DNA of 64,000 nt from a virus: the IMG/VR virus record IMGVR_UViG_2931133163_000006; one strand, 5' to 3'. How positions within the stretch are numbered: position 1 is the stretch's first letter; every line of letters begins with the position of its first letter. The notes under the pieces were generated by a model. The model saw only the letters and a program-made list of their open reading frames with translations. It ran no database searches and was not told the origin of the DNA. Position numbers and translations under genes: made by a program. Positions 36,635 through 60,647 of the stretch are shown here, in pieces.

Positions 36635-37069
36635 CTACTCCGCCGCCTGCCGCGCCGCTTGGGCGCCGGGCACGCCCAGCCCGATCGCCTTCGCCAAGGC
36701 CGACCGCCGCGCGGCGTAACCGGCGGCGACCATGGGATAGTCGTCGGGCAGCCCGAAGCGTGCGCGGTAGCCGTCCGGCGTCAGGCCGTGGGACGTCAGG
36801 TGCCGCTTCAGCGTCTTGTACGGCTTGCCGTCGAGGAAGCTGATCAGGCTGTCGTTCCGGATCGACCTGCGGATCTCGGTGGCCGTCAGGCGGAAGCCCT
36901 CGGGCTTGGCCGTCGCCGCGGCCGGCTCCAGGTCCTGGAGCGCGACCAAGCCGTCGCGGACGGTGCGCATCAGACCGGGCAGCGCGTCGGCGGTCACGGC
37001 CTGTCGGCCGACGTAGGCCGCCACGATGCCGGCGGTGAGGCTGAGGATGTCATCTTGGGTGTCGGACAC
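36635..37069 (-). CDS. mucR: MucR/Ros-family regulator, variant finger with Ser/Asp at the Cys positions
   Basis: LTA.IV.AYV....V....LP.L...V; ISFLDGKPYKTLKRHL...GLTP..YR..FGLP.DYPMVA..YA..RS.LAK.IGLG. Confidence 0.93.
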   Translation of the reverse strand: MSDTQDDILSLTAGIVAAYVGRQAVTADALPGLMRTVRDGLVALQDLEPAAATAKPEGFRLTATEIRRSIRNDSLISFLDGKPYKTLKRHLTSHGLTPDGYRARFGLPDDYPMVAAGYAARRSALAKAIGLGVPGAQAARQAAE

Positions 37070-37127
37070 TGGAGAACTCCTGTGGGGATGTGAGGCCGGG
37101 CTGTCTGCGCCGGCCGGGCGCGTCGGT

Positions 37128-37946
37128 TCAGTGGACCTCCTCTTCGTGGTCGGCGGGGATCGGCACGCGCAGGCCGATCTTGTGGGCGAGCTCGTCGCTG
37201 ATCGGGAGGCGGCCCCACATGGCCTGGCCGCGGCCTTGCGCTGCGGCCTCGGCCCGGGCCCGCGCGCGGAACCGGTCGTTCGCCCGCGCCATCGACGCGC
37301 GTTCGGCGGAGATCTCCTCCTCCGTCTGCTCGGTGATCACGGCCTCGCCGCGTAGCTCCGCCTTCACCGTCTCCCAGTGGGCGACGGCGTTTGCCCGATC
37401 GTCGTCGGTGGCGCCGGTGTCGTAGAGCTCGGCGCCGAGGATCGCTTCGACCCTCGCCAGCTCGGTTTCGAGCGGCAGGGTCTCGTACCGGCACTCGGCA
37501 ACGACATCGGTGTCGGACGGGCAGCCCTTGCCGTCCCACAGGCAGCGCCAGCCGGGCTGTCGGAACCGGAGACGGGCCCGCTCGATCGCCCAGGTCGGCT
37601 CGCCGGCGAGCGCCTGGGCGTAGAAGCCGACCTTGGTGGTGAGCTCCTGCGCGTCGGCGCCGAAGTTCGCTTTGCTGGCGATCAGCAGCATGATCTCCCG
37701 GTTCGCCTCCGGGCCCGGCGTCGGCACGAGGGCGCGCCGCAGCTCATCCCGCCGGTGCTCCAGCCAGTCCTGCTGCGCCCGGTTAGGCGCCGAAGCGACG
37801 GGCAGGCGCTTGCGCCGGAAGGAGCCCGGCGTGTCCTCCAGCCGGTTCGTGAACTGCGCGATGAAGCGATCCGACTCTCGCGTCGGGAGCAGCGGGAGCA
37901 CGGCCCGACTGTAGGCCGAGGACATCGAGGAGGTCGGCAGGGTCAT
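37128..37946 (-). CDS. Putative replication accessory protein (in the position of lambda P)
   Basis: Directly follows the O-like initiator; AL...P.WAI..A pattern. Confidence 0.5.
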   Translation of the reverse strand: MTLPTSSMSSAYSRAVLPLLPTRESDRFIAQFTNRLEDTPGSFRRKRLPVASAPNRAQQDWLEHRRDELRRALVPTPGPEANREIMLLIASKANFGADAQELTTKVGFYAQALAGEPTWAIERARLRFRQPGWRCLWDGKGCPSDTDVVAECRYETLPLETELARVEAILGAELYDTGATDDDRANAVAHWETVKAELRGEAVITEQTEEEISAERASMARANDRFRARARAEAAAQGRGQAMWGRLPISDELAHKIGLRVPIPADHEEEVH

Positions 37947-38814
37947 GGGGCAATCCAATCATCTCGGCGACGAGGGCGAGTCCGCCGTTCGTGGAGCGGC
38001 GGGGCGAAGCGGATGCGGGGGCGGAGCGGCGGGTCTCGCGGGCGGCGCGCTCGGCGGCCTCGCGGAGGGCGGTGTCGAGGAAGCTGTCAAAGGCCAGCGC
38101 CCAGTCGGCCTTCCGGGCGATCGGGCGGTGCGCGTTGGCGTGCGACCAGCGGTGCATGCTGGCGGCGGTCTGCCGGACGAAGGCGGCGTCGAAGCCGAGA
38201 GCCTCGGCGGCCGCGTAGTGGCGCCCCTCCGGCGCGAATCCATCGGGACACAAAACCGCCCGGGGAGAGGGAGCCCCCTTGGGGGCCGTGGCCGTGTCAG
38301 CGGACGCGGGGGGTAGCGCCGAGTCCCGAGTCTCTCTCCTGGGGGATTCCCTTCTGGGGGATTCCTTCTGGGGGATTCCTCTAGGGGTGACAGCAGTGTC
38401 ACCCTCGGGGGTGACTGGCGTGACACCCCCGAGGGTGACTGGATCGGGCGGCGGTATGGGTGACTGTGTGTCACCCTCCCCACGATCCGGCCGGCCACTC
38501 GATTGGGGCGGCGCCGGGTCGTTCGCCGCCGGCCGCGGTACGCCCGGCAGGTAGAGGACGAACAGGTTCTCCCGCTGCCGGCCGGTCTCCGCGTGGCGCT
38601 GTTCGACCCGCAGGATACCGAGGTCCTCCAGGACGCGGATCTTGCGCTGGACGGTCCGGACGGACTGCGAGCACTTGCGCGCCAGCGTCTCGATCTTCGG
38701 CCAGGCCTGCCCAGTCTCGGCGTGCGCGTAGTCCGCGATCACGAAGGCGACGAGCTTCGCGATCCCGTCCGGGATGTCCGTCTTCATGACGTAGTGGATG
38801 GCCTCGATACTCAT
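37783..38814 (-). CDS. Replication initiator, lambda O-like with N-terminal winged HTH
   Basis: KLV...IAD.A....G.AWP.I..LA..C..S.RTV.R.I..LE..G; contains internal repeats. Confidence 0.8.
   Translation of the reverse strand: MSIEAIHYVMKTDIPDGIAKLVAFVIADYAHAETGQAWPKIETLARKCSQSVRTVQRKIRVLEDLGILRVEQRHAETGRQRENLFVLYLPGVPRPAANDPAPPQSSGRPDRGEGDTQSPIPPPDPVTLGGVTPVTPEGDTAVTPRGIPQKESPRRESPRRETRDSALPPASADTATAPKGAPSPRAVLCPDGFAPEGRHYAAAEALGFDAAFVRQTAASMHRWSHANAHRPIARKADWALAFDSFLDTALREAAERAARETRRSAPASASPRRSTNGGLALVAEMIGLPHDPADLLDVLGLQSGRAPAAPDARVGSLHRAVHEPAGGHAGLLPAQAPARRFGA
38339..38476. repeat. Iteron-like repeats, putative replication origin
   Basis: 3x CTGGGGGATTCC (38339, 38354, 38368); GGGTGAC-N5/6-GTCACCC palindromes at 38385-38404 and 38458-38476, an imperfect copy at 38409-38428 and a half site at 38433. 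Confidence 0.7.
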
Positions 38815-39168
38815 GGGCGGTGCGCCTTCGTTCAGGCAAAGCTTCATTGGCCGGCCGCGAAGCCTTTCCGGCTCCGGGCACGCGAATACCCGTCGCTGAA
38901 ATCGCTGCTCGCGAACGGCGGTCGGGTCGGCGGGGCGGTGTGAGAAGCTCGCAACGCGGGCCGGGCCACAGGCCTCCGCCGAAAAGGACGGCGTCTGGAG
39001 GCGGCAGCTCAGGACCTGCGGAAGGCCGGATCTCGTCCGGACCGGGCGGCATCAGTCGGGCACGAGGCGGGGACCTGACGCAGGGCGCGCGAGGATCTGA
39101 TGTCCTGGCGCGGGGGACCGCGGGGCAAGGGCCAGAGCTGCGGGTTCATGGCTGGGCGGCTCCGCGCG

Positions 39169-39567
39169 TCAGACGGCCGGCTGGGCGGCGGCTGGCGCCG
39201 CGGCGGCGCTCGCGGGCTCGATCCCGTCGGCCGGGGCCGGCGCGGCACCCGTGCTGGGCGTCGGCAGAGAGGCCGCCGGCACGTCGGCCGCGCCGGCGCC
39301 GAGGCGCGGCGTGCCGCCCGGACCCTGGTCGGGCGCCAAGCGGTCTAGGCGGGCGAGCGTGTCCCGCTGGCGGCCCTCGAGGACCGACAGCAGGTCGATC
39401 ATGCCGAGGTTGTTCGCCCGCACCGCCTTGGCGGTCGGTCGCGGGTCGTCGGCGATCCGGTCGTTCTTCGCGTGCAGCTCCAGGCGCAGCTGCGCCAGCA
39501 GCTCCTCTAGCTTCCATCCGTCCGGATTCGCTTTCGACATCAGCACCGGTGTCGTGGGCGTGCTCAT
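39169..39567 (-). CDS. Hypothetical protein
   Basis: NPDGWKLEELL..LR.E...KN; GGAGG RBS. Confidence 0.6.
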   Translation of the reverse strand: MSTPTTPVLMSKANPDGWKLEELLAQLRLELHAKNDRIADDPRPTAKAVRANNLGMIDLLSVLEGRQRDTLARLDRLAPDQGPGGTPRLGAGAADVPAASLPTPSTGAAPAPADGIEPASAAAAPAAAQPAV

Positions 39568-39690
39568 GGATCACCTCGGGAGGGTTGCCGCGCGTGCGCG
39601 GTCGGGCGGCCCGCGTGGGCCGGAAGCGGATTCGGAGTCCGAGTCTGGCGGGAGTCGGGGCCGCTCCGCGGCCTGCTCCCGAGCGCCACG

Positions 39691-40185
39691 CTAGGCGTCC
39701 GGTCCGGATGATGCCGGCGGCATCGGCGGCGGTTCGCTCGCGGCGGCCAAGCGCACGGATTCGCGCGTCAGCAGCTCGGCGTAGAGCCGGCAGCGCATCG
39801 GAGCCCCGAACGAGCGGAAGGCCGCGATCTCGGGCGGATAGACCAGCGCCACCGCGGCGATCGCGCGGGCCTCGGCCGTGAGCTGCGCCTCGATCCGCGC
39901 GGGCTCGGATCCGATGCCGGCGACGAGCTCCAGGAGATCGGGCGGCGTCGACGCGTCCAGCGGGTGCGCGCGCTCGAGCGCGGCGCCAATCCCGGGCAGG
40001 CCTGCGCCTCGCGTGCCATCGGCGAGCCGGCCCAGCGCCGCCGGCGCTAGCGCGTCGAAGCGACCGGCCGCCGCCATCATGCGGACGCGGCCCAGCACCG
40101 AGGCCGGCTGGACGCTGGCGGCGGCCGCGATCGGCGCGGCGGCGAACAGGCCCAGAAGCCCGCGGCGGTTCGGATTCGCGCTCAT
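39691..40185 (-). CDS. Hypothetical protein with twin-arginine-like leader
   Basis: NRRGLLGLFAAAPIAAAA. Confidence 0.5.
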   Translation of the reverse strand: MSANPNRRGLLGLFAAAPIAAAASVQPASVLGRVRMMAAAGRFDALAPAALGRLADGTRGAGLPGIGAALERAHPLDASTPPDLLELVAGIGSEPARIEAQLTAEARAIAAVALVYPPEIAAFRSFGAPMRCRLYAELLTRESVRLAAASEPPPMPPASSGPDA

Positions 40186-40342
40186 CGTCCGACCGCCCAG
40201 ATGAAGGCGAGCAGCAGGCCGGCCACCGCAAAGCGGGACGCATGGAGCGCCGCCAGCTGCGGGACGAAGCCTCCGCGTCGCGCGCGCCGATGCAGCGCTT
40301 CGGATTCGAGGGCGGCGATCGCCATGAGGGGCGTGGCGGCCG

Positions 40343-41647
40343 TCATTCGGCGGCCTCCAGCCGAGGCGGCTCGGCCTGCCGGTAGAGGTTGATGAAGTCC
40401 TCGCGCGGCTTGCGCTGAAACGCTTCCCCGAACGGTCCGTAGGAGCACTGCCTCACGAGATCGTAGAAGGCGTCCGGCTTTTCACTGTTGGCGCCCAGCG
40501 GCCAACGGTGATGGGTCGCCGTTGAATACGTCGCGGAGCGCCGAGGCATGCGAAGCTTGGATCCACGACGAGCAAAGACGAAATGCTCAGTGGTATTCCG
40601 CATCTCGTGTCCGAGGCTGAACTTCGGATCGTTGCGGCTGAGGTCGCTGACCTCTTTGACCCAAGTGTGGACTGTTTTGACCTCGAAGCCCCACTCCTGA
40701 ACAATCGATGGGATGTCGCCCCAGACGCCGTTGATGAACCACAGGTAGAGGTGGGAATCCTCCCAGGTCCACCGCTGCAACGGCAGTGCGCGGATCTCGT
40801 CGAGCGACATCTTCGCGTAGGCGTGTCCGGCCGCCGCAGACACGTTCACTTCCTTCCAGGGCGGGTCGAGCACCGCAGTCTGGACGGATCCATCGTACGG
40901 GATCAGCTCCAGGCAGCGTTGCTCGTCGCCCACCGCCCGCATGCGATTCCAGGCGGCTGTCGGGTTGTCGGCCTTGCACATGACCGGGACGAGGAAGCCG
41001 AAACGGTCCGGATCGACCGCGGCGGCCTCGCAGACCTCGAAGGTGCGCAGCAGAAAGTCGGCGCTCTCGTCCCAGAGCTTGCCGAGGTCGGCGAGCGCGC
41101 GCCGCTGAGCGGCGTCGAAGGTGCCGCCGATGACAGGCGCGTGGCCGAGCCGGGCCTCAAGGAGCGCGCGCGCCGCCAGGTTGATGTCGACGAGGCTCCA
41201 ACGGCCCTTCCAAGCATCCGTGAGCAGCTGCCGGCCCTGACGCTTCAGCGCCGGCAGCGTGATCGTAGCCTCTGAATCGCGCGCCGACGAGATGCAGGAC
41301 CATGCGACGTTCGGAGCGCCGCCGGCATCGAGGAAGTTCAGCGCCGCGCCGAGCCGGATGGGATCTGCAACGGCTGCGTCGCTGACCTTCAGCAGCCAGT
41401 CGAGCCACTGATGGCTCTTACCCCATCGCGCTGCCGTTGCACCCGTTGCCCTCGACCCTTGTCTAATTTTGACAAGGGTTCCGCCCAATTCTCTCGCCCT
41501 CGCAGCGTCGCGCTCGACGGCCAGAATCGGACGGGCAGCGGTCGCCACCTCGCTCAACAGCCACGGCCTCGGACCACGCATCACGCGCCCTTGCGAACTC
41601 AGACTTGGACTGGGGAGGGCGCGCGGTATGGCGCACCAGGTTGTCAC
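40343..41647 (-). CDS. MT-A70-family adenine methyltransferase with a long N-terminal region; start uncertain (41647 or 41581)
   Basis: VLDPPW, Y..MS.DEI.ALP, LYLW, WGF......W.K, LG...R..TEH....RRG, S.KP..FY..V. Confidence 0.9.
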   Translation of the reverse strand: MTTWCAIPRALPSPSLSSQGRVMRGPRPWLLSEVATAARPILAVERDAARARELGGTLVKIRQGSRATGATAARWGKSHQWLDWLLKVSDAAVADPIRLGAALNFLDAGGAPNVAWSCISSARDSEATITLPALKRQGRQLLTDAWKGRWSLVDINLAARALLEARLGHAPVIGGTFDAAQRRALADLGKLWDESADFLLRTFEVCEAAAVDPDRFGFLVPVMCKADNPTAAWNRMRAVGDEQRCLELIPYDGSVQTAVLDPPWKEVNVSAAAGHAYAKMSLDEIRALPLQRWTWEDSHLYLWFINGVWGDIPSIVQEWGFEVKTVHTWVKEVSDLSRNDPKFSLGHEMRNTTEHFVFARRGSKLRMPRRSATYSTATHHRWPLGANSEKPDAFYDLVRQCSYGPFGEAFQRKPREDFINLYRQAEPPRLEAAE

Positions 41648-41871
41648 GACGCGGAAGAGCCCTGCGCGGCGGCGCGTGTGATCGCCTGCCGCACGAGCTC
41701 GCAGCCCTGCGCGATCAGCCGCTCACCTTCGTCGAGATCGACAGAGGCGGCGAGCCCGCTCAGCTCACCCATGAGGCCGATGTATTCGACCAGCGCGGCC
41801 TCGCGGCTGCCGAACATGCTCAACAGCGAGGGCGTCAGCTCGGTGAGCCTATTCCGATCGAGGGCAGCCAT
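41644..41871 (-). CDS. Hypothetical protein
   Basis: Coupled ORF. Confidence 0.45.
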   Translation of the reverse strand: MAALDRNRLTELTPSLLSMFGSREAALVEYIGLMGELSGLAASVDLDEGERLIAQGCELVRQAITRAAAQGSSAS

Positions 41872-42071
41872 CAGACGAATCCCCGCTTCGTTGAAGGATG
41901 CAGTGACCGCTCCTCGAGCCGCCCCTCCCGCCGCGCCGTCCAGCGCAGGACGACGAGCAACCCGAGCTGTATCGGCAGGGTGAGCAGCGCCGCGAAGCTC
42001 GGGTGCACCATGATCGCCGTCGCGATGGCGGCGGCGATCAGGACCCAGAGGGAGGGAGAGCGGGCAGCCAC
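41871..42071 (-). CDS. Small two-TM membrane protein
   Basis: LWVLIAAAIATAIMV and FAALLTLPIQLGLLVVL. Confidence 0.55.
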   Translation of the reverse strand: MAARSPSLWVLIAAAIATAIMVHPSFAALLTLPIQLGLLVVLRWTARREGRLEERSLHPSTKRGFV

Positions 42072-42075
42072 GGCG

Positions 42076-42963: not shown

Positions 42964-42972
42964 GGACGGGCC

Positions 42973-43434
42973 TCAGGCTTGGGGGGCGGGGGCTTCGGTG
43001 CCGGCGTCGGCAGCCGGATCGGGATTCGCGTCGGGTGCGCTGGCCGCCGCGATCGCCGCCTCGGACCACCAGCCCTCGGTCAGCCGACCGTCTGCGGCGC
43101 GGTACCGGACGAGGTAGTTGCGCGAGCTCTCGGAGTACTCGGCTCGGGCGATGACGGTGCCGCGCTCGTCGGTGCCGACGAGGCCGACCGGCTCACCGAG
43201 CGCGAAGGCGAAAATCCCGACGAGGCTCGAATGGCCATCGCGATCGGCGCCGACCTTGCCCTCTGCCACGAAGACGGAGGCGCACTCGTGCGCGTAGAAG
43301 GATCGGGACTCACCCGGATTCACGGTGCTGTACCAGACGGCGCGGACACGGCCCCCGGTCTCCCGTTCGACAGTCGTCACCTCGGCGGTCCAGCCGACGT
43401 CTTTCGGCACTTCGACGTGCACGGTTGTGGTCAC
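42973..43434 (-). CDS. Hypothetical protein
   Basis: GAGGAG RBS, GTG start; G.V..RAEY......Y..RY.AADG....WW. Confidence 0.6.
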   Translation of the reverse strand: MTTTVHVEVPKDVGWTAEVTTVERETGGRVRAVWYSTVNPGESRSFYAHECASVFVAEGKVGADRDGHSSLVGIFAFALGEPVGLVGTDERGTVIARAEYSESSRNYLVRYRAADGRLTEGWWSEAAIAAASAPDANPDPAADAGTEAPAPQA

Positions 43435-45112: not shown

Positions 45113-45113
45113 G

Positions 45114-47285: not shown

Positions 47286-47530
47286 CCCTCCACCTGGCGG
47301 AGGACGGCGTTGGCCGTCTCCTGCGCGGGGGCGGCGCCTGCCGGCGTCACCTCCAGCGCGGACAGCCGATCAACGACGACGGCGAACACCGCGTCCCGAT
47401 CATGGCCCGAGGCGCACAGGTACGCCTCCAGGAGGAGCGCCCGGCGAATGGCCGGGTCGGGGCGCCTCATGGCCTCTGCGACGACCGTCGCCGCGTAACT
47501 CTCCTCGCCGTCGAGCATGGCCCAGGGCAT
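47282..47530 (-). CDS. Hypothetical protein coupled to cro
   Basis: TGATG overlap with the cro stop. Confidence 0.45.
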   Translation of the reverse strand: MPWAMLDGEESYAATVVAEAMRRPDPAIRRALLLEAYLCASGHDRDAVFAVVVDRLSALEVTPAGAAPAQETANAVLRQVEG

Positions 47531-47790
47531 CAGGCGGCAGCTCCCTCGGTTGGGATCGTCTTGGGTGGGCGCGGGACGGACTGCGGCCACGTCGCCTTGT
47601 CTTCGGGCCAGTGGTCCGAGAACCACTGCATCGCCAGCTCGAGCCGCCGCGTGGTGAGATCGCGGCCCTCGGCAAGCCGCGTGAGGACCTTTCCGTCGCC
47701 GAAAACCAGCGTCGAGGTCCGCGCGGCACTCAGGCCGCGCGCCTCGCAAAATCGGCCAGAGACCGCCAGCAGGGCATCAAGAAGCGTCAT
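47530..47790 (-). CDS. cro: Cro-like repressor
   Basis: Divergent from cI; L...C.A.GLS....S..VF.DGK.L.RL..G.D.T..R.E.A..W.S..WP. Confidence 0.75.
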   Translation of the reverse strand: MTLLDALLAVSGRFCEARGLSAARTSTLVFGDGKVLTRLAEGRDLTTRRLELAMQWFSDHWPEDKATWPQSVPRPPKTIPTEGAAA

Positions 47791-47804
47791 CGAGTCGAAC
47801 GATG

Positions 47805-47876
47805 CTGTATGTTTACCGCGCGAGTCAACGGTAAACATACAGCTCGGGGCCAGCGTTCCGTGCGGTTAAAATACCG
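47805..47876. promoter_or_regulatory. Three 14-bp operators and divergent promoters between cro and cI
   Basis: CTGTATGTTTACCG (47805), CGGTAAACATACAG (47829), CGGTTAAAATACCG (47863); minus-strand TTGACT at 47823-47828. Confidence 0.8.
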
Positions 47877-47877: not shown

Positions 47878-48648
47878 GTGACCCAGGCAGGCCTTCCTCA
47901 GCGCGTGCAGCAGCGCCTCGACGCCCTCGGAATGAGCGCTCGCCAAGCGTCTCTCGACGCGAAGCTCAGCAGCGCGTTCGCGACGAACATCCTCAACGGG
48001 AAATCCAAGTCGCCTCGCTCGGAGAACCTCCACAAGCTTGCCGGCGTCCTGGGGACAACGGTCAACTGGCTGGTCAACGCGGAAGGCCCTGAGACGCCAC
48101 AGACGAACGGACATGCGCGGATCGACAATGATCTCGCGCGGGCGATGGAGGAAACGGCACAGCGCGCCGGAGATCTGATGCCGGTCCTGGGGGAGGTCGC
48201 GGCCGGCCGATGGCTGGAGGTAGAACAGGACATAGACGAGTCGCGCTTCGAGCCAGCCCCGATTACGCCGGATCCGCGGTGGCGCCGAGAAGCGCAGTAC
48301 GGTCTCGTGGTGCGTGGAACCTCGCTCAACCTCTACGCCGCTGACGGTGACACGCTTCACTGCCTCGACATCCGCCAGAGCGGCCGCCTTCCCGTGAACG
48401 GCGATCTCGTGATCGTCGAGAAGGTCCGGGACGGTGGCCAACTCCGCGAGCGAACGGCCAAGGCCTACCACGAGGGCGAGAACCAGTTCGTTGAGCTGCG
48501 CGCCTACAGCGATGACCCTCGCTGGGATGAGCCGATCCACGTTCCACATCGGGTCTTCAGCCACGTCATCGAGAAGGGCCTGAGCGTCGAAATCGTCGCG
48601 ATCGTGCTGGGCGCATACAGACCGATGCCCAAAATCCTGCGACGGTAG
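47878..48648 (+). CDS. cI: CI-like repressor (XRE HTH plus S24 peptidase)
   Basis: N-terminal HTH; VAAG cleavage site, VRGTSL catalytic Ser, TAK catalytic Lys; GTG start with no evident SD. Confidence 0.92.
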   Translation: MTQAGLPQRVQQRLDALGMSARQASLDAKLSSAFATNILNGKSKSPRSENLHKLAGVLGTTVNWLVNAEGPETPQTNGHARIDNDLARAMEETAQRAGDLMPVLGEVAAGRWLEVEQDIDESRFEPAPITPDPRWRREAQYGLVVRGTSLNLYAADGDTLHCLDIRQSGRLPVNGDLVIVEKVRDGGQLRERTAKAYHEGENQFVELRAYSDDPRWDEPIHVPHRVFSHVIEKGLSVEIVAIVLGAYRPMPKILRR

Positions 48649-50231: not shown

Positions 50232-50507
50232 ATGGCCGCCCGCGCCCGCCGCCAGCCTGCGCCCGAGCCCGCCCCCGCCGCCGTCCCGGTGCAGCCGGAC
50301 TTCGGTACGTACCGGCTGGAGCAGCTCGGCTCCTGCCAATGCCGCTTCCCGTGCTCCTCGCGTGGGACGGATCACCGCTTCTGCGGGAAGCCGGCCGTCC
50401 AGCATCACCCGAACCGGCCGGCCGTCTGGTGCGCCGACCATCGGCAGGTTGTGTTCGAGGCTTGGCGCCCGGGTGGCCAGGTCCTGCGCCGCGCGGGGAG
50501 GGCCTGA
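50232..50507 (+). CDS. gcrA: GcrA-like C-terminal domain protein
   Basis: LEQL...QCRFPC......HRFCG.......WC..H..V.F matches the GcrA CTD pattern L..L....CRWP......FCG......YC..H...AY. Confidence 0.7.
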   Translation: MAARARRQPAPEPAPAAVPVQPDFGTYRLEQLGSCQCRFPCSSRGTDHRFCGKPAVQHHPNRPAVWCADHRQVVFEAWRPGGQVLRRAGRA

Positions 50508-54041: not shown

Positions 54042-54214
54042 AGCCCGTCGCCGCTCCGCTCGCGATCGCGTCCGCGATCCTGATCCTGCTGATCGTCCTG
54101 GCGATGCTGCTGATCCCGGTCCTGGACGCCGAGCTGCGGCGAGCGACGGCGCGGAAGGCTGCGGCCCTGACCAAGCTCGCAAGCCAAGCGGAACAGAAGG
54201 ATCCCACCGCGTGA
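54038..54214 (+). CDS. Small membrane protein (58 aa, missing from the ORF track)
   Basis: MKPVAAPLAIASAILILLIVLAMLLIPVL...; overlaps at both ends. Confidence 0.55.
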   Translation: MKPVAAPLAIASAILILLIVLAMLLIPVLDAELRRATARKAAALTKLASQAEQKDPTA

Positions 54215-55053
54215 CAAAGCTCAGACCAATCGCCGCCCTGAACTTTCCGGACATCCAGCCGGACGCCGAACTCGGTCCGGCGCCGCAACTGCGGCTGGTG
54301 TCCCCGACCGATCTCCTGGTCGACGAGACCTATCAGCGGGATCTGTCGCCCCAGTCGGTCCAGCTGATCCGCCGCATCGTCGGGTCCTGGCGCTGGCGGG
54401 CGTTCAAGCCGCCGATCGTCGTGTCGACTGAGGAAGGCCTTCACGTCATCGACGGTCAGCACACCGCGATCGCGGCCGCGACGCACCCGGAGATCCAGGA
54501 GATCCCGGTGCTGATCGTCGAGGCCGCGGACCGGCAGAGCCGCGCCGAGTCCTTCGTCCGGCACAACCGTGACCGCCTCCAGGTCACCGGCACACAGATG
54601 CACCATGCCCTGGTGGCGGCCGGCGATGAGACGGCGCTGACCATTGAGCGCGTCTGCCAGCGCGCCGGCGCTCGCGTCGTCCGTTACGCCACAACGAGCG
54701 ACCGCTGGCTCGTCGGTGACACGATGGCGGTGGAGGCCCTGCGCGCCCTGGTCAACCGCCGACACGCCCGGGGTGCTCGCGAGGTCCTGCAGGTCTGCGT
54801 CGAGGCCCGCATGGCGCCCGTGACCGCAGCGTTCCTCAAGGCGGTCGAGGCGATGCTGTTCGCCCCGGAGTTCACCGGCGCCGTTCTGGCTGCCGACATC
54901 GCCACGACGATCCGCGCGATGGGCCCGCAGGCCGAGAAGGAAGCCGTCGTGCTCGCGGTCGCCCAGCGCCTCCCGCGGTGGCGCGCGCTCGCTGCCATCC
55001 TTTTCCGCAACACCAGAAAGGTCCGGAGCCATGGACGTCGAGCGGCGGCTTGA
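54211..55053 (+). CDS. ParB/Srx-like N-terminal domain protein (DGQH motif)
   Basis: L.VD..YQRDLS...I....F.P..V.......VIDGQHT. Confidence 0.75.
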   Translation: MTKLRPIAALNFPDIQPDAELGPAPQLRLVSPTDLLVDETYQRDLSPQSVQLIRRIVGSWRWRAFKPPIVVSTEEGLHVIDGQHTAIAAATHPEIQEIPVLIVEAADRQSRAESFVRHNRDRLQVTGTQMHHALVAAGDETALTIERVCQRAGARVVRYATTSDRWLVGDTMAVEALRALVNRRHARGAREVLQVCVEARMAPVTAAFLKAVEAMLFAPEFTGAVLAADIATTIRAMGPQAEKEAVVLAVAQRLPRWRALAAILFRNTRKVRSHGRRAAA

Positions 55054-55411
55054 AGTGGTGGAGCAGGAGAACCTGCTCTTGCGCGAACGCATCGCCTTTC
55101 TGGAGGCGATCCTGATCGACTGCGCGCGGCTGCCCGTCGAGTGGGGCCTGACGCAGCAGGAGACGCGGGTCTTCGGGACGCTCGTCAACCGTGAGGTCGC
55201 GACAAAGGATGCCGTGATGGCGGCCCTCTACAGCGACCGTGCGGGCTCCGAGGGCGAGATCGAGCCGAAGATCGTCGACGTCTTCGTCTGCAAGATCCGC
55301 AAGAAGCTGAAGCCCTTCGGCATCGAGATCCGGACGGTCTGGGGCCAAGGCTACGCCCTCAAGCCGGACATCAGATCGGCCTACCGGCACGCCTCCAAGG
55401 CGGCCGCGTGA
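55031..55411 (+). CDS. Receiver-less OmpR-type winged-helix protein, CtrA-like DNA-binding domain
   Basis: LT..E..V...L....T...M..LY...EPKIVDVFVCKIRKKL...IRTVWGQGY; N-terminal heptad repeat. Confidence 0.8.
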   Translation: MDVERRLEVVEQENLLLRERIAFLEAILIDCARLPVEWGLTQQETRVFGTLVNREVATKDAVMAALYSDRAGSEGEIEPKIVDVFVCKIRKKLKPFGIEIRTVWGQGYALKPDIRSAYRHASKAAA

Positions 55412-55614
55412 TGGCCGACACACTCGCCGCTGCGCTCCCCCGCGAGATGGTCCGCGTCACCAAGATCGCCGGCCAGTACCGACAGGTCGAGATGGGCTTC
55501 ATCGCCGCCGCCCTGATGGAGGCGGCTGTCGAGCGCGGACAGAAGGCGATCGAGTCCGGCGACCTCACCGAGATGATCCGGGCCTACCACGACCTGAAGG
55601 GGTACGAGCTGTGA
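55408..55614 (+). CDS. Hypothetical phage protein
   Basis: LP.EM.RV...Y...A..A...GD...MI..Y..LK. Confidence 0.6.
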   Translation: MMADTLAAALPREMVRVTKIAGQYRQVEMGFIAAALMEAAVERGQKAIESGDLTEMIRAYHDLKGYEL

Positions 55615-55970
55615 GCGACCGCGTCGTACCCCAGCCGCGCGACTTCATCGCGACGCTTCCCCGCCTGCGCCTCACCCCTCAGCAGTTCGAGGACCTGCGC
55701 GACTACAGCGCCAGCTACCCGACGGGCACGACCCCCGGGAAGATGTGGCGGCGCCTCGATGGCGCATTCGACCACGCCTTCATCCGAGCCGGCGGCAAGC
55801 CGTACTGGATGGTGATGCAGTATGATCCGGCGGCGCCCTCCGACGCCGAGATCGAGGCCATGAAGGCACGCGGCGAGCCGGTGCCGACGCGGATCAGCAT
55901 CCTGCGGTTCAAGCCGGTCATCGTGCTCCGCGCCGACTCGCGGCCCTCAGCTACTCAGGTCGCAGCATGA
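55611..55970 (+). CDS. Hypothetical protein
   Basis: L.DYS.S.PTG...GKMWRR. Confidence 0.55.
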   Translation: MSDRVVPQPRDFIATLPRLRLTPQQFEDLRDYSASYPTGTTPGKMWRRLDGAFDHAFIRAGGKPYWMVMQYDPAAPSDAEIEAMKARGEPVPTRISILRFKPVIVLRADSRPSATQVAA

Positions 55971-56359
55971 CCCGCCGCGCCCCCATTCTCCCAACGCCGA
56001 CCATGCAGGAGCGCGCCGACGCGGCGATCGCCGCCCGCGTCCTGGCCGCCGCGGCCGCTGATCCGTCGACCCGGGGCGAGCGCAGCGTCGCCTTCTTCGA
56101 TTTCAGCAACCCGCGCCGGGGCGAATGTCACGTCACCTGGGCGAACCTGCCCGGCTTCCTCCAGGTCAACGACCGCTTTCAGCACGCCTGCCTGCCCGGC
56201 TGGGAATACACGAAGGCCGAGGTCGAGTTGGAGATGATCCCGGACCTGCGGGCTTTGGCCGAGCACGGCGTGCGGCCGGCCGTGGCGACGAACGGCAAGC
56301 CCACCACCGGTGATCTGTTCGGGGTCCTTTTCGCCACGCCAGTTGAGGGTTCGCGCTGA
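55967..56359 (+). CDS. Hypothetical protein
   Basis: Coupled ORF. Confidence 0.55.
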   Translation: MTRRAPILPTPTMQERADAAIAARVLAAAAADPSTRGERSVAFFDFSNPRRGECHVTWANLPGFLQVNDRFQHACLPGWEYTKAEVELEMIPDLRALAEHGVRPAVATNGKPTTGDLFGVLFATPVEGSR

Positions 56360-56781
56360 TGCCGGAGATCTCCGAACTCTTGGCACGCCCAGCGCCCGAG
56401 CGCTTCGACGGCGCTGAGGCCTGGTCGAAGCTGCCGCCCGACGTCCAAGCCGAGATCGGCGCGATCGCGCTGGAAATGGCGGCCGCCAACAGCCTCCACG
56501 ATCGGTGCTGCCAGGACGATCTGCCGGAGATCTACCACCGCGCCGGCGATGCTGCGGTGGTCGAGCTGTGGCGCGATCTTCAGGCCGTGACGTCCGATGC
56601 GCTGCCCGAAGGGGTCTTCGAAGCCTCGGACGGGCGGCTGCCCCGCATCCCCGCGCTCCTCGGCGGCGTGTGCCGCGTCTGCGGCTGCTCGCAGAACGAT
56701 GCCTGTGACGAAGGCTGCGGCTGGGTGGCCGAGGACCTGTGCACGGCCTGCGTCGCCATCGGAGGGCACGATCATGGGTGA
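56359..56781 (+). CDS. Hypothetical protein with C-terminal zinc ribbon
   Basis: CRVCGCSQNDAC..GC.WV..DLCTAC. Confidence 0.65.
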   Translation: MPEISELLARPAPERFDGAEAWSKLPPDVQAEIGAIALEMAAANSLHDRCCQDDLPEIYHRAGDAAVVELWRDLQAVTSDALPEGVFEASDGRLPRIPALLGGVCRVCGCSQNDACDEGCGWVAEDLCTACVAIGGHDHG

Positions 56782-57007
56782 GCCCGAGCGCTTCATCACC
56801 AGCGCCGCCCTCAGCCGCGGCGCACAGGAGAAGATCGAGGCGATGAAGGAGCAGCTGCTCATCGCCTTCGTCAACCGGCTCGGCGGCTCGCTCACCCTAC
56901 CGGTCGACGAGATCAACGGCACGGACGCCTTCCACTTCGTCATCGGGGCCGACGCTGCGGCCGGGATCTTCACGTTCCGCGTCGTGCGGAAGGAGGTACG
57001 GCAATGA
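56774..57007 (+). CDS. Hypothetical protein
   Basis: KEQLLI.FV.RLGG...PV.EI. Confidence 0.55.
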   Translation: MGEPERFITSAALSRGAQEKIEAMKEQLLIAFVNRLGGSLTLPVDEINGTDAFHFVIGADAAAGIFTFRVVRKEVRQ

Positions 57008-57393
57008 CCCTCACCCCGAACCGCGACGCAGTGCGCACGGCTGCCGCAGAGGCCCGCGAGCGCCACGCCACCGTCATCGCCCGGGACGACGCGTCCGGCA
57101 TCGGCATGCGCATGGCGATCGAGGCGGCCGAGGCGATCGTCGGCGGCACGGCCGACATGACCGATCGAGAGATCCCGGTAGAGGCGATCTACCCGCAGGT
57201 CAGCATGGCCGCCGGACACGCGTTGACGGCGTTCCTGATGACCATCGCGCGGGGCGACGTGAACCTCGCGGCGAGCTTCCTGCCGGGGCTGCTGGCGTCG
57301 GTCCAGGAATGCGCGCTCGTCCGTCTTCAGGACGGGCCGGAGGCCTTTGCGCAGAGCTTCGCGGAGATCCAGCATCCGGCGGGGCGGGCATGA
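57004..57393 (+). CDS. Hypothetical protein
   Basis: Coupled ORF. Confidence 0.5.
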   Translation: MTLTPNRDAVRTAAAEARERHATVIARDDASGIGMRMAIEAAEAIVGGTADMTDREIPVEAIYPQVSMAAGHALTAFLMTIARGDVNLAASFLPGLLASVQECALVRLQDGPEAFAQSFAEIQHPAGRA

Positions 57394-57641
57394 GACCGCT
57401 CAACACGCGTCAACTCGGCGTCCTGCGCGCCGCCCCGATCGGCGTCGACGATGCCTCCGGCGGCGATCCCTACAAGGGTGGTCGCTTCACCTACCACGGG
57501 GCGGATGGCCGGGTCGCACGCGGCCTCTGGCTCTCAGGACACCTCGAATACCGGCAGGTCGGGTTCGGTGGGCAGGGCGGGTTGCTGACGCTTTCGGCCG
57601 CCGGCCGCGCCGCCCTCGCGACGGAGGCCGCCCGTGGCTGA
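57390..57641 (+). CDS. Hypothetical protein, possible winged helix
   Basis: ATGA overlap. Confidence 0.45.
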   Translation: MRPLNTRQLGVLRAAPIGVDDASGGDPYKGGRFTYHGADGRVARGLWLSGHLEYRQVGFGGQGGLLTLSAAGRAALATEAARG

Positions 57642-58506
57642 GAACAGCAAGATCGAGTGGACCCATCACACGATGAACTTCTGGCTCGGCTGCACGGCGC
57701 TGAGCCCCGCATGCGACCACTGCTATGCCGAGGCCTGGGCGAAGCGCACCGGCAACGCGGCCCTCTGGCAGGGCGCGCGTCGCCGTACCAGCGCCGCGCT
57801 GTGGCGGCAGCCGGCGAAGTGGGATGCCGCCTGCACCGCGGCCGGCATCCGCCATCGCGTGTTCACCAACTCGCTCGCCGACTTCTTCGACAACCAGGTC
57901 CCGGCCGAATGGCGGCATGACGCCTGGGCCGTGATCGCCGGCGCCCGGCACCTCGATTGGATGGTGCTGACGAAGCGACCGGAGAACATCGCGAAGATGC
58001 TCCCGGTGATGGACAGCTCGGCGCCCGGCTACCGGCCGTGGAACGAGCGCTGGCCGTGGCGGAACGTCTGGCTCGGCACGACGATCGAGGACCGGGCGCG
58101 CCTGCGCCGCCTCGACAAGCTGCGTGCGGTCCCCGCCGCGGTCCGCTTCCTGTCGGTCGAGCCGCTGCTGGAGGACCTAGGCGAGCTGGACCTGTCCGGC
58201 ATCCACCTCGTCATCGTCGGTGGCGAGAGCGGCGGGAAGGCGCGTCCAATGCAGGCCGAATGGGTCCGCGAGATCCGGGACCAGTGCGCTGAGCAAGGTG
58301 TGCCGTTCTTCTTCAAACAGCACGGCGACTGGATCGACGTGGGCCAGCTCCGACACCTCAACGCTTGGACCGGCGGCCCTGGCTTCGGTGCCTTTGATCA
58401 CTGCCGCTTCGACATGGAGGCTCAGTGCCTGCGGATCGGCAAGAAGGCCGCCGGCCGCCTCTTGGATGGCGTGGAGCACAACGGCTTCCCGGAGGCGCGA
58501 TCCTGA
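57634..58506 (+). CDS. DUF5131 (phage gp37/gp68 family) protein
   Basis: SKIEWT..T.N.W.GC...SP.C.HCYAE, F.NS..D.F, LTKRPE, RFLS.EPLL, VIVGGESG..ARPM, FFKQ.G. Confidence 0.92.
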   Translation: MAENSKIEWTHHTMNFWLGCTALSPACDHCYAEAWAKRTGNAALWQGARRRTSAALWRQPAKWDAACTAAGIRHRVFTNSLADFFDNQVPAEWRHDAWAVIAGARHLDWMVLTKRPENIAKMLPVMDSSAPGYRPWNERWPWRNVWLGTTIEDRARLRRLDKLRAVPAAVRFLSVEPLLEDLGELDLSGIHLVIVGGESGGKARPMQAEWVREIRDQCAEQGVPFFFKQHGDWIDVGQLRHLNAWTGGPGFGAFDHCRFDMEAQCLRIGKKAAGRLLDGVEHNGFPEARS

Positions 58507-58739
58507 TGGCGCTCCTTCGCTGCCCCCACTGCCGCCATCCCCTCGATATGACCGATGTCGAGGTCTACGGGCGCTTCACGACCCTGCATGGTGACGACGG
58601 TCCGGTTGCGACCGAATGCGACGACTGCGGTCAGACCTTCTACGTCCAGGAGTACGTCAACCGCACGTGGTCGGTCGGCGTCGATGCGGATGCGGCTGCG
58701 GATCTGCTCGCCCCGTTTGTCGATGGGGTCGGCGCATGA
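58506..58739 (+). CDS. Zinc-finger small protein
   Basis: CPHC ... CDDC. Confidence 0.6.
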   Translation: MALLRCPHCRHPLDMTDVEVYGRFTTLHGDDGPVATECDDCGQTFYVQEYVNRTWSVGVDADAAADLLAPFVDGVGA

Positions 58740-59416
58740 AGCCGGCCGCGCCCCCGATCGGCGTCGCCGAGGATGCTCGCGGCATCGTCGTGAGCCTGCC
58801 GCCGCGCTTCTGGCTGCTGGTCAGCCTGCGCAAGCTCTTCCGGCGCATGCTGCCCGAGCCGATGGCCTGGACGTACCGGCTGCCGCGGACGATCGGCGCA
58901 GCGAAGCGCGTCGAGGTCTGGATCTCTGAGGTCGAGCTGCAGGTGCGCGCCGAGGAGCGCCGACGCGCCTGGACCGCGTCTGACGCGGAGTGGCACGACA
59001 CCCCTCAGCCCACGCCCGCGGCGCCGATCGCCGCCGAGCCCGTGGTCGTCACGCTCCCGACGGAGGAGACCGGCCCGTCCGTCCTGGACCTGCTGCGCAG
59101 GCTCAACGAGGGCGCGACCATGGTGGCGACGATCGAGGAGGACGGCGTGCGCCGGTACCGCCTCGAGCCGCGCGGCTACCTCGTTCGGACCACGGTCGCC
59201 GAGCGCGCGATCCGCGAGCGCCTGGTCGCGCCCGGCAACGACGGGCTCCTCGGGCCCGACTTCTCGCAGACCTGGCGAGCACCGACCCGCGAGGAGGTCA
59301 CCCGAGCCGAGCCGCGACCAACGAAAGCCAAGGGCAAAACCAAGGCCCCGACCAAGCGTCGAGCCCCCCCCGGCGGAGCTCTGCATCATCCGTCGACCAT
59401 CACCCGTAGCGTCTGA
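58736..59416 (+). CDS. Hypothetical protein
   Basis: Coupled ORF; L..L..DGL.G...SQTW. Confidence 0.5.
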   Translation: MKPAAPPIGVAEDARGIVVSLPPRFWLLVSLRKLFRRMLPEPMAWTYRLPRTIGAAKRVEVWISEVELQVRAEERRRAWTASDAEWHDTPQPTPAAPIAAEPVVVTLPTEETGPSVLDLLRRLNEGATMVATIEEDGVRRYRLEPRGYLVRTTVAERAIRERLVAPGNDGLLGPDFSQTWRAPTREEVTRAEPRPTKAKGKTKAPTKRRAPPGGALHHPSTITRSV

Positions 59417-59428
59417 GGAGGTCCGTCC

Positions 59429-59788
59429 ATGCCGTCGCCGTCTCTCATTCACGCCGCCCGTCATGCCCCACATGCGCGCGCCGAGATCTTCCGCATGGCC
59501 CGCTTCATGGTCGAGCAGAAGAACGGCCCGGAGGGCGCCTGCACCATCGCTCACCTGTTCCAGAAAGGCTGGACGGAGGCGGAGGTCCATGCCTACCGCG
59601 ACCCCGCCCGCGCGCTCATCCGAGGGCTGCCGCTGACGGGAGATCCGCCCGGCCGGCGCGAGGCCGAGGCGGCGGTAGAAGCCGTCCGGGAACTCCGGTT
59701 CGCGCGGGTGGCCGAGCGCTACCTCGCGCGGCGCGCTTGGGCGCCGCCCGTGATCTGGGAGCAGCCTGCGCCGGACGCCGTGTCGTGA
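59429..59788 (+). CDS. Hypothetical protein
   Basis: GAGGAGG RBS. Confidence 0.55.
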   Translation: MPSPSLIHAARHAPHARAEIFRMARFMVEQKNGPEGACTIAHLFQKGWTEAEVHAYRDPARALIRGLPLTGDPPGRREAEAAVEAVRELRFARVAERYLARRAWAPPVIWEQPAPDAVS

Positions 59789-60114
59789 AGACCGCCCTCA
59801 TCATCCTGCGCGCCGACGGCAACCGCGAGGACCGCGACGTCGACATGGCCGGCGACCCCGGCCTCGCCGAGCTGCGCGACGTCCTAGAGCCGATCCTGGC
59901 CGGCCGGCCCGAGCATGTGGCTGTCCTCCATGACGGCAGACGCGCCGACATGTTCGTCCACGAGGACGGGCACGGCGCGGGCCTGCCCCGCAACGAGGCG
60001 GCGACGAAGATCTACCGCGCCTCGTGGCTGTCGCGGCACCCGTCCGATCACCCCGAAACTCTGCCCTGGATCGCCGGCACCGCCGTCGTCTTCGGCCGCA
60101 TCGTGTGGAGCTGA
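59785..60114 (+). CDS. Hypothetical phage protein (DUF3846-like)
   Basis: M.V.E.G....LP.N..AT..Y......I.G..V. Confidence 0.55.
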
Positions 60115-60120
60115 CCCGCC

Positions 60121-60375
60121 ATGGCCTGCGACTGCATCGCCACCATGAACACCGCTCTGGCGGAGCGGAACACCGAGATCCAGCCGACGATCATCTTTGG
60201 CACGGAGGAGCGCCCGGGGTTCACCTGCGTCACCATCGTGACGGAGAAAATCAAGGCGCGCGGCCCGCGGGCGGCGGTGCCGCTCCCGAGCTTCTGCCCG
60301 TTCTGCGGGACGGCCTACGCCTTCACGGATGCCGATGGCGACGCCGGCGGCTCGCACGGGCAGGTGGCGGCATGA
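60121..60375 (+). CDS. Cys-rich small protein
   Basis: MACDC ... FCPFCG. Confidence 0.6.
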
Positions 60376-60647
60376 CAGCGGGCCTGTCCACCGCATGCGA
60401 CGTCTCCTCGGCCGAGGGCGTCGCAGCCGATGAGCTGAAGCAATTCATCGAGCGCCTGGAGCGCCTCGAGGAAGAGAAGGCCGGCATCATGGGCGACATC
60501 AAAGAGGTGTTCGCCGAGCTGAAGGGCCGGGGCTTCGACGCCAAAGCCATCCGCACCATCCTGCAGGTGCGCAAGCAGGACCACAGCGAGCGCCAGGAGC
60601 AGGAGGCGATCCTCGAGCTCTACATGCAAGCGCTGGGAATGGCGTAG
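60372..60647 (+). CDS. gapR: GapR-like nucleoid protein (DUF2312/UPF0335)
   Basis: [33 protein letters not shown]...RK.D..ER.EQEAIL.LY..ALGM. Confidence 0.92.

Follow-up and report, generated by a model that had tools for sequence, protein, structure and literature searches.

Why would a prophage carry homologues of several host cell-cycle and nucleoid regulators, and do they work as one set or individually? We examined this question in the window, that is, the whole 64-kb stretch of viral DNA that was analysed. An earlier note had listed six genes in it, encoding CtrA-like, GcrA C-terminal, GapR, MucR, ParB-like and MT-A70 proteins, and had proposed that the four regulator mimics and the methylase form a single module. 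All six open reading frames proved to be real homologues lying at the listed positions, and their coding signal is strong (GC3 0.80-0.94).

The prophage and its early operons

The element is integrated as a prophage in a Methylobacterium contig of 6.66 Mb; lysis genes mark one end, and nuoA lies immediately outside the other. On balance, we take it to be a temperate phage of about 65 kb, lambda-like in layout and with a baseplate of the Mu type, residing in the Methylobacterium chromosome. Two divergent early operons are separated by a repressor gene (47905-48648), and the four regulator genes and the methylase gene are spread over 24 kb in both operons. The relevant features are as follows.

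36635-37069, minus strand: full-length Ros/MucR-family protein, 144 aa (PF05443)
40343-41647, minus strand: MT-A70-family N6-adenine DNA methyltransferase (PF05063, phrog_359)
47803-47842, no strand: 15-bp perfect inverted repeat with a 10-nt spacer, read from the sequence of the divergent switch region
47905-48648, plus strand: cI/LexA-type repressor (HTH_3 and Peptidase_S24 by Pfam), heading the plus-strand side
50232-50507, plus strand: GcrA sigma-interacting-domain (SID)-only protein, 91 aa (Pfam GcrA, hhalign, PDB profile match)
54211-55053, plus strand: ParB/Srx-fold protein, 280 aa, containing a DGQH motif; its C-terminal half is helical (phrog_1033, AF2/Foldseek)
55031-55411, plus strand: receiver-less CtrA-type winged helix, 126 aa, with an N-terminal leucine zipper (PF00486, NCBIfam, tree, AF2)
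60372-60647, plus strand: GapR/DUF2312 nucleoid-associated homologue, 91 aa (PF10073, NF010247, phrog_4212)

A CtrA-type winged helix with a leucine zipper

The 126-aa protein matched PF00486 with 34.9 bits (cut-off 26.2), and its top NCBIfam match was the CtrA equivalog (NF045991) with 39.6 bits, followed by the next model with 24.8 bits. These matches are confined to residues 40-111, and no receiver domain with a phospho-acceptor Asp was found by Pfam or NCBIfam in the 126 residues. When we built a tree with 16 other OmpR-type domains, all from one Mesorhizobium genome, the short phage family and the CtrA DNA-binding domains formed a single clade (SH-aLRT 96), in which the phage family is a sister to host CtrA and is not nested within it. 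The phage family profile scored 56.7 bits against CtrA of the same Mesorhizobium genome and at most 36 bits against the other paralogues, and a search with the motif KI[VI]DVF[VI]C recovered true ctrA loci across Alphaproteobacteria. The clade and the top NCBIfam model indicate that the affinity to CtrA claimed before is specific and not that of a generic OmpR protein. The family comprises 177 homologues at E <0.001 (120 listed) and occurs on 158 viral contigs; the residues that contact DNA are invariant.

In the AF2 model (pLDDT 86), a helix at residues 3-29 precedes the winged helix, and Foldseek matched the model to OmpR/PhoB-family DNA-binding domains with rmsd values of 2.2-3 Å over about 76 residues. 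The a/d positions of the zipper are occupied by L7, V10, N14, L17, I21, L24 and L28; this heptad is conserved in the family, and 22 of 31 sequences have Asn at position 14. The phage protein thus resembles CtrA in its OmpR-type winged helix, in a recognition helix and wing that are nearly identical in the alignment, and in the common clade, whereas it lacks the receiver and the N-terminal β-sheet of the effector domain, has a 27-residue leucine zipper instead, and its gene adjoins a ParB-like gene. CtrA-type genes of cultured phages (RDJL Phi 1, vB_PmaS-R3 and Rhodobacter capsulatus phages) share the winged helix with 38-47% identity, but their products are longer (151-266 aa) and differ at the N-terminus, and no ParB-like neighbour is annotated. 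Gp37 of Roseobacter phage RDJL Phi 1 is annotated as 'ctrA', and a CtrA-type annotation is also present in Paracoccus phage vB_PmaS-R3; a literature search found no paper discussing these cultured-phage genes.

We infer that the prophage protein would be a constitutive, phosphorylation-independent parallel dimer. With a recognition helix and wing so close to those of CtrA, it is expected to sit on TTAA half-sites of the CtrA type. When we searched the prophage for the CtrA box TTAA-N7-TTAA, none was found, TTAA itself occurs only five times in 64 kb, and a search for a repeated candidate binding site in the prophage gave none. The absence of the box makes targets in the host, such as CtrA-regulated promoters or the origin, more likely, although it is no proof of host targeting and may reflect a drift in specificity or another half-site spacing under a symmetric zipper dimer.

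The ParB-like gene is the conserved partner of the CtrA-like gene

In the prophage, the ParB-like gene overlaps the CtrA-like gene by 23 nt. Its product matched phrog_1033 (E 1.4e-16) and, weakly, DUF6551 and DGQHR, and a PDB search by sequence gave no match. Foldseek with the AF2 model (pLDDT 89.8) retrieved ParB, Noc and KorB with E values of 4e-6 to 1e-3 and probability 1.00, at modest TM-scores of 0.4-0.55, and the matches included the KorB and KorA co-complex (8qa8, 8qa9). The predicted N-terminal ParB/Srx domain and helical DNA-binding region align in the model with those of ParB, Noc and KorB. As in KorB-KorA of plasmid RK2 (PDB 8QA8, 8QA9), the gene is also paired with a gene for a small DNA-binding protein that is predicted to be dimeric. 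In contrast to these systems, the prophage protein carries DGQH and has no ParA partner, and its neighbour is a CtrA-type winged helix instead of KorA. The motif region DGQHT, in which D81, G82, Q83 and H84 are invariant, stands at the place of the canonical CTP-binding arginine box, and because DGQH replaces this box, any CTP-dependent clamping is putative.

Of 80 viral loci, 69 have a ParB-like gene directly upstream of the CtrA-like gene, and in 55 of these 69 the two are at most 60 nt apart and mostly overlap. The ParB-like gene, which had been listed as just another member of the set, is therefore the conserved partner of the CtrA-like gene, and the ParB-like protein and the zipper-bearing CtrA DNA-binding domain are the conserved, tightly linked unit. 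The two proteins probably act jointly. At 31 of the 80 loci, a methylase gene on the same strand (19 MT-A70, 12 N6_N4) begins no more than 3 kb downstream. In the prophage, 14 kb separate the pair from the methylase gene, which belongs to the other operon.

A GcrA fragment that retains the sigma-interacting domain

The 91-aa fragment is composed of a Pro/Ala-rich leader, the zinc ligands C37, C51, C67 and H70, which are invariant within its SID-only family, and a basic tail. It scored 23.1 bits against Pfam GcrA (PF07750), under the gathering cut-off of 26.9, and matched only profile positions 83-146; hhalign aligned it with GcrA residues 114-170 (E 2.8e-5). The family profile matches the C-termini of true GcrA, 39 of its 50 long library matches were Pfam GcrA in a reciprocal check, and a PDB search with it gave 5yix_B (GcrA-SID) as the only match, with the C/C/C/H ligands aligned. 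The N-terminal domain that reads m6A-GANTC is absent, as Pfam and hhalign cover the C-terminal part only. Truncation had been claimed for two of the four regulators, and both cases hold: a CtrA DNA-binding domain without the receiver and a GcrA C-terminal domain without the DNA-binding domain. All members of the SID-only family that our homologue search returned lie in Methylobacterium prophages.

When compared with 5yix_B, the fragment keeps C118, C133, C143 and H146. At the contact positions, judged against the interface residues given in PMC5887438, W120 is replaced by Phe, F132 is kept, Y142 is replaced by Trp and Y151 by Phe; F130 is replaced by His, and D124 and P125 are lost. Mutations of F130 and D124 in GcrA weaken sigma binding (PMC5887438). 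The fragment thus shares with Caulobacter GcrA (PDB 5YIX, 7YE1) the C-terminal zinc SID with its four ligands and the basic tail, and most hydrophobic contact positions are unchanged or conservatively substituted, but the methylated-DNA-reading N-terminal domain and the linker are missing. Phage phiCbK homologues have been placed in the GcrA family, pfam07750 (PMC3556154). The fragment has retained its zinc fold and most of the residues in contact with sigma-70, and it should bind sigma-70 domain 2, either as a competitor of host GcrA or as a DNA-blind cofactor.

GapR, MucR and the MT-A70 methylase

The GapR homologue scored 113.6 bits against PF10073 (E 3.1e-33, cut-off 22.6) and 123.4 bits against the NCBIfam subfamily NF010247 (cut-off 94), and 99.4 bits against the NCBIfam Caulobacter GapR equivalog, below the cut-off of 140. 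Like GapR of hosts and of phages such as Erythrobacter phage R34L1 (PMC12185513), it has a full-length DNA-binding-domain match and a host-like size, and it is one prophage copy among many, as a GapR gene is present in about 28% of the proviruses surveyed. The MucR homologue matched PF05443 (ROS_MUCR) over positions 2-123 of 123 (130.4 bits, E 4.7e-38). Like Ros/MucR silencers and phage MucR genes such as ORF61 of Erythrobacter phage vB_EliS-R6L (PMC5463345), it is full-length and comprises the N-terminal half as well as the C-terminal DNA-binding domain. Its zinc site reads S-x2-D-x9-H-x3-H, with Ser as the first ligand, whereas most homologues have C-x2-D (Cys in 10 of 11 aligned homologues). 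GapR and MucR, both full-length, would either do on overtwisted and AT-rich DNA what their host counterparts do or form joint assemblies with these counterparts.

The MT-A70 protein matched PF05063 at residues 258-402 (57.7 bits, E 1.9e-15), leaving about 250 N-terminal residues outside the match; it contains the DPPW motif and matched phrog_359 (E 3.7e-26). Alternative gene calls place its start at 41647 (GTG) or 41488 (TTG). The enzyme would methylate adenine, for protection or timing. An epigenetic link between this m6A methylase and GcrA is weak here, because the part of GcrA that recognises methylated DNA is missing from the fragment. Profile searches against CtrA, GcrA, DUF2312 and ROS_MUCR upheld the four regulator homologies, with GcrA below the Pfam gathering score.

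Distribution of the genes across proviruses

Four syntenic relatives (G007, G010, G011 and G021) carry the GcrA C-terminal domain (159-166 bits), GapR, MucR and MT-A70, and these backbone genes are kept even though the terminase is only 79-94% identical. When we looked for the ParB-like and CtrA-like genes in these four relatives, both were absent. GcrA-SID-only, GapR, MucR and MT-A70 are the backbone set common to this lineage, while the ParB-like gene and the zipper-bearing CtrA-type gene are a separately mobile two-gene cassette, which is widespread in other alphaproteobacterial proviruses, often with a DNA methylase downstream of it.

Among 29 other viral records with a CtrA-like gene, the genes other than the CtrA-like one occur at 14-45%, among them GapR in 8 records, MucR in 4 and a GcrA-family gene in 8, and none of the 29 contained GapR, MucR and GcrA together; the four-way combination is expected in about 1% of CtrA-like carriers. 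Tests of association with the CtrA-like gene gave Fisher p values from 0.07 to 1.0, none of them significant, in small sets (29 and 21 records) of phylogenetically non-independent IMG/VR fragments. The lowest value belongs to GcrA-family genes (8 of 30 records with the CtrA-like gene versus 1 of 20 without), and GapR and MucR are equally frequent with and without it. The frequencies fit independent assortment and not the co-occurrence beyond chance that had been expected. Loose clustering does recur: of 80 loci, 10 have GapR and 11 have a GcrA-like gene on the same strand within 3 kb of the CtrA-like gene, which leaves some room for functional cooperation. At loci L141 and L142, a cluster of CtrA-like, GapR, GcrA-like and methylase-type genes packs five such genes inside 4 kb, and G056 has CtrA-like, GcrA and MT-A70 genes in that order.

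Functional interpretation

Based on these observations, we suggest that the early operons are a mosaic of host-derived genes whose products bind DNA or RNA polymerase and act individually, with no obligate module; together with our view of the element as a temperate phage, we hold this account to be slightly better than an even bet. The earlier note was right that the four homologies are real, CtrA-specific in the case of the winged helix, and truncated in two cases, and its single coordinated module was not supported. We judge it unlikely that selection has kept the four mimics and the methylase together so that the host cell cycle is reset or frozen when the prophage is induced: all four are homologues of conserved host cell-cycle or nucleoid regulators in early operons, compact clusters recur in some proviruses, and GcrA-family genes are more frequent alongside the CtrA-like gene, but the syntenic relatives keep the rest without the CtrA-like/ParB-like pair, GapR and MucR are indifferent to the CtrA-like gene, none of the 29 records combines GapR, MucR and GcrA, and the prophage genes are scattered over two operons.

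A use within the phage's own programme, and not mimicry of host regulators, is doubtful, though we rate it above the induction set. In this joint reading, the ParB-like protein and the winged helix, with the methylase in other phages, might be a unit of DNA modification or transcription control in which, as in KorB-KorA, a clamp of the ParB family works with a small site-specific partner, and the GcrA fragment might be a sigma-70 cofactor for phage promoters. The tight coupling of the pair, a downstream slot filled by two unrelated methylase families, the structural matches to the KorB and KorA co-complex, the position of the phage family as an old sister clade of CtrA with no recent host capture, and the slightly faster promoter opening still seen with GcrA lacking its DNA-binding domain (PMC5887438) are in line with it. 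Against it stand the scarcity of TTAA and the lack of CtrA boxes or repeated candidate sites in the prophage, the distance of the methylase, and the strict conservation of the CtrA recognition helix across many host genera, which a conserved host target explains more easily. We consider it very improbable that the phage carries these genes as neutral passengers (morons) without any selected function, even though early accessory regions are mosaic and variable in content: the frames are intact with strong coding signal, the CtrA-like family is large with invariant DNA-contact residues, and the backbone genes have outlasted the divergence of the terminase.

The mosaic operons that we favour diverge from a switch region, in which the inverted repeat at 47803-47842, a candidate operator, is flanked by the repressor gene on one side and by a minus-strand gene of 86 aa (47530-47790) on the other.

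Regulator homologues in the prophage

Nearly all of the window (G+C content, 70%) is a single prophage. Exact-protein look-ups located it in a 6.66-Mb Methylobacterium contig, and the phage proteins have their nearest homologues in Methylobacterium; megablast gave no cultured-phage match for the region. The nuo operon begins about 0.5 kb past the last phage gene, with the prophage end preceding nuoA, and beyond the lysis cassette lie host genes. Three gene blocks were revealed by GC3-based gene calling, and these blocks, the contig placement and the Methylobacterium homologues agree with the earlier note, which had described a prophage with two early operons. The six regulator and methyltransferase ORFs named there were all recovered at the same positions. 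The main features are as follows.

47790 down to about 34300, minus strand: early region of the minus-strand block, followed by terminase, head, Mu-type baseplate and lysis genes (500-2100)
24070-26148, minus strand: terminase, within the minus-strand block
36635-37069, minus strand: MucR, entire ROS_MUCR profile matched at 130 bits
40343-41647, minus strand: MT-A70 enzyme, 58 bits, DPPW present
47905-48648: cI/LexA-type repressor, HTH_3 and Peptidase_S24
49461 to window end, plus strand: long operon of small genes
50232-50507, plus strand: GcrA fragment, 91 aa
54211-55053, plus strand: ParB-like protein, 280 aa
55031-55411, plus strand: CtrA-like winged helix, 126 aa
60372-60647: GapR, 114 bits

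A CtrA-type DNA-binding domain with a leucine zipper

In Pfam, the CtrA-like protein matched only the generic Trans_reg_C domain, and its CtrA specificity was therefore put to the test. The top NCBIfam match was the CtrA equivalog, with 39.6 bits; the model ranked second reached 24.8. A protein search yielded 177 homologues of about 125 aa at E <0.001; among the 120 matches listed, they span Hyphomicrobiales and beyond, and several carry the JGI label CtrA. When species genomes were scanned with the most conserved peptide of the family, KI[VI]DVF[VI]C, it hit true ctrA from Rickettsiales to Caulobacterales. With the family profile, the resident CtrA of one Mesorhizobium genome reached 56.7 bits, and none of the genome's other OmpR-type regulators exceeded 36 bits. 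A maximum-likelihood tree built on 69 DNA-binding domains placed the short phage family and CtrA in one clade (SH-aLRT 96), separate from the 16 paralogues included. Since the phage family and the CtrA group are each monophyletic, the tree identifies the former as an old sister clade of CtrA, with no recent capture. In the alignment, the CtrA-like protein is nearly identical with CtrA in its recognition helix and wing. Based on the NCBIfam ranking, the profile scores, the common clade and the recognition helix, the proposed CtrA affinity is well supported. A generic OmpR or CzcR-type domain is ruled out by the tree and the profile scores.

The protein had been described as receiver-less, which proved correct: it contains no receiver, and residues 3-29 are predicted as a single helix (pLDDT 86). 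OmpR/PhoB effector domains superpose on the winged-helix part of the model. The conserved a/d positions in the family are L7, V/L10, N14, L17, I/V21, L24 and L28, and Asn14 is present in 22 of 31 sequences. In GCN4-type zippers such an a/d pattern corresponds to a parallel dimer; by analogy, the heptad pattern of the CtrA-like family would specify a parallel dimer.

The ParB-like partner gene

The ParB-like protein matches phrog_1033, and its structure model, built from a 40-sequence alignment (pLDDT 89.8), found ParB, Noc and KorB as best structural matches over 200-250 columns. Its nucleotide-pocket motif is DGQH instead of the canonical ParB box, and a PDB profile search with the family gave nothing meaningful. 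When IMG/VR was scanned, 158 viral contigs with a CtrA-like gene were obtained, of which 80 loci were fetched for neighbourhood counts. The ParB-like gene is directly upstream of the CtrA-like gene in 69 of the 80 loci, with a spacing of 60 nt or less in 55 of these 69; the typical overlap is 13-28 nt, as in the window. Judged from these contigs and gene arrangements, the CtrA DNA-binding domain fused to a leucine zipper is a widespread prophage family that appears translationally coupled to a ParB-like gene. Where about 310-420 nt separate the ParB-like gene from the best CtrA-like match, the gap is due to two adjacent CtrA-like copies, as in the viral records G038, G040, G042, G043 and G048 (loci L101, L107, L113, L121 and L133).

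In 31/80 loci, a DNA methylase gene on the same strand begins no more than 3 kb downstream; it belongs to MT-A70 in 19 and to the unrelated N6_N4 family in 12 of them. Since a non-homologous enzyme fills the same slot, this arrangement argues for a functional tie between methylase and cassette (the ParB-like and CtrA-like gene pair). Any other neighbour occurred in roughly a quarter of the 80 loci at most by single-linkage clustering of neighbouring ORFs, which is noisy from spurious high-GC frames and was used solely for choosing the commonest neighbours. At L126/L127 (9297-10279), a full-length GcrA-like gene lies 48 nt directly upstream of the CtrA-like gene, in the usual place of the ParB-like gene.

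A GcrA protein reduced to its sigma-interacting domain

The Pfam GcrA match of the 91-aa protein, at 23.1 bits, is below the 26.9 cut-off and covers the C-terminal part only. Its family comprises 20 members, from Methylobacterium only, with invariant C37, H48, C51, C67 and H70. In a profile-profile alignment against five genuine GcrA proteins, residues 22-82 paired with GcrA 114-170 (E 2.8e-5). When 401 Hyphomicrobiales genomes were searched in six frames, the six best matches inspected included four genuine GcrA genes (170-181 bits with the GcrA profile), matched at their C-termini. The family profile also matched 182 proteins in a 1.8-billion-protein library, where 39 of the 50 with at least 149 aa are Pfam GcrA, and its sole PDB match was 5yix_B, the GcrA sigma-interacting domain. 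Alignment with 5yix_B revealed that the four zinc ligands are retained. When contact residues were judged against the published interface (PMC5887438), W120, F132, Y142, Y151, L113 and V149 were retained or conservatively replaced; F130 is replaced by His, and D124/P125 are missing. Because of the C-terminal-only alignments, the 5yix_B match and the zinc ligands, we identify the 91-aa protein, at the level of homology, as the GcrA sigma-interacting domain without the DNA-binding domain. Thus, the earlier description of a C-terminal-only GcrA stands despite the sub-threshold Pfam score.

GcrA stripped of its DNA-binding domain is reported to retain RNA polymerase binding and to promote promoter opening only weakly (PMC5887438), which makes it plausible that the fragment may act as a competitor or DNA-blind cofactor. 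A second GcrA paralogue of this C-terminal type (P0137), 66% identical, is encoded on the same 6.66-Mb contig, a sign that the host may have a second, related prophage.

A lineage backbone and a separate cassette

The earlier note had regarded the four regulators and the methyltransferase as one coordinated module. Co-occurrence was measured by searching whole records of 29 diverse viruses with the CtrA-like gene and of 21 relatives picked by terminase.

Table. Records containing each gene in the two samples
Gene; CtrA-like set; terminase set
GapR; 8/29; 6/21
MucR; 4/29; 5/21
GcrA family, over cut-off; 8/29; 1/21
MT-A70; 13/29; 7/21
CtrA-like; 29/29; 1/21

When carriers of the CtrA-like gene were compared with the other records, the Fisher p values were 1.0 for GapR, 0.45 for MucR, 0.07 for the GcrA family and 0.38 for MT-A70, from samples that are both small and phylogenetically non-independent. 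None of the 29 CtrA-like records contains GapR, MucR and GcrA together. Independence predicts all three in about 1% of CtrA-like carriers, and therefore one or two triple carriers among the 158 contigs. Four relatives (G007, G010, G011 and G021), with terminases 79-94% identical, each have the GcrA fragment (159-166 bits), GapR, MucR and MT-A70, and both the ParB-like and the CtrA-like genes are missing from all four; in G021, where spacing was compared, the order of the four genes is that of the window. Since these relatives have the backbone without the cassette and the co-occurrence fits independence, the window set is, by gene content, a four-gene lineage backbone plus one separately mobile cassette.

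Loose clusters do recur. Same-strand GapR is found within 3 kb in 10/80 CtrA-like loci and a GcrA-like gene in 11/80. L141/L142 (6.8-10.4 kb) contain GapR, full-length GcrA, MT-A70, ParB-like and CtrA-like genes inside 4 kb, and G056 (38.1-39.5 kb) has consecutive CtrA-like, GcrA and MT-A70 genes. This pattern reads as a common pool of early accessory genes that would favour the same genome region. Thus the domain-level homologues of host regulators are real, but the single coordinated module is not borne out.

Candidate targets and relation to known phage regulators

The prophage contains no exact TTAA-N7-TTAA site and only one one-mismatch site, at 34195, which is at chance level. Base composition predicts about 33 TTAA and about 178 GANTC in the window, where 5 and 63, respectively, were counted; four of the five TTAA fall in stretches that are intergenic or of doubtful coding status, and there look like -10 elements. 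When repeats were searched for parS-like or operator families, only high-GC noise came up. As the prophage is without the full site and poor in TTAA, the host genome is the likelier place for sites of the CtrA-like dimer, if the CtrA half-site preference is kept. Because CtrA contact residues are strictly kept across many host genera, a conserved host target would fit.

Phage homologues of GcrA (phiCbK group, PMC3556154) and GapR (PMC12185513) are on record, MucR has been annotated in phage (PMC5463345), and regulation of phage genes by the CtrA of the host has been described in a paper that also mentions CcrM analogues of phages (PMC9437464); the set as such thus extends a known theme. Among cultured phages, RDJL Phi 1 (gp37, "ctrA"), Paracoccus vB_PmaS-R3 and 21 Rhodobacter capsulatus phages have annotated CtrA-type genes, and no paper discussing these was found in the searchable literature. 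Unlike the window protein, theirs have other N-termini and no annotated ParB-like neighbour. Both the zipper-CtrA/ParB-like cassette and the GcrA fragment reduced to the sigma-70-binding zinc domain appear undescribed in the searchable literature.

The cellular functions of these homologues are inferred. A speculative joint reading, which we consider rather unlikely, is that the zipper-CtrA and its ParB partner, often with a methylase, commandeer the host CtrA regulon or origin independently of phosphorylation in many alphaproteobacterial temperate phages, joined in the Methylobacterium lineage by a sigma-70-titrating GcrA decoy. If so, the phage would override the CtrA as well as the GcrA arm of the cell-cycle oscillator. 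The cassette and the GcrA fragment offer straightforward, testable access to the ways in which temperate phages disturb the CtrA/GcrA/CcrM circuit or borrow from it, and could become tools, one for binding CtrA sites constitutively and one for binding sigma-70 domain 2.

Other features of the prophage

Ten further early-operon proteins have no Pfam match, including the 382-aa protein (62496-63644) previously called an integrase, for which neither a search at E<=0.01 nor existing records gave one; a T5orf172/MUG113-like gene (63641-64000) directly follows it. ARAGORN called a 96-nt tRNA-Ala(GGC) at 5381-5476, within a tail-region ORF, which is probably a false positive. The minus-strand early operon is closed, right after mucR, by a full-length RtcB RNA ligase (34890-36275; phrog_1075, E 1.5e-86). 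A 15-bp perfect inverted repeat with a 10-nt spacer (47803-47842) is likely an operator; it lies in the divergent region flanked by the cI-like repressor and a minus-strand gene of 86 aa.
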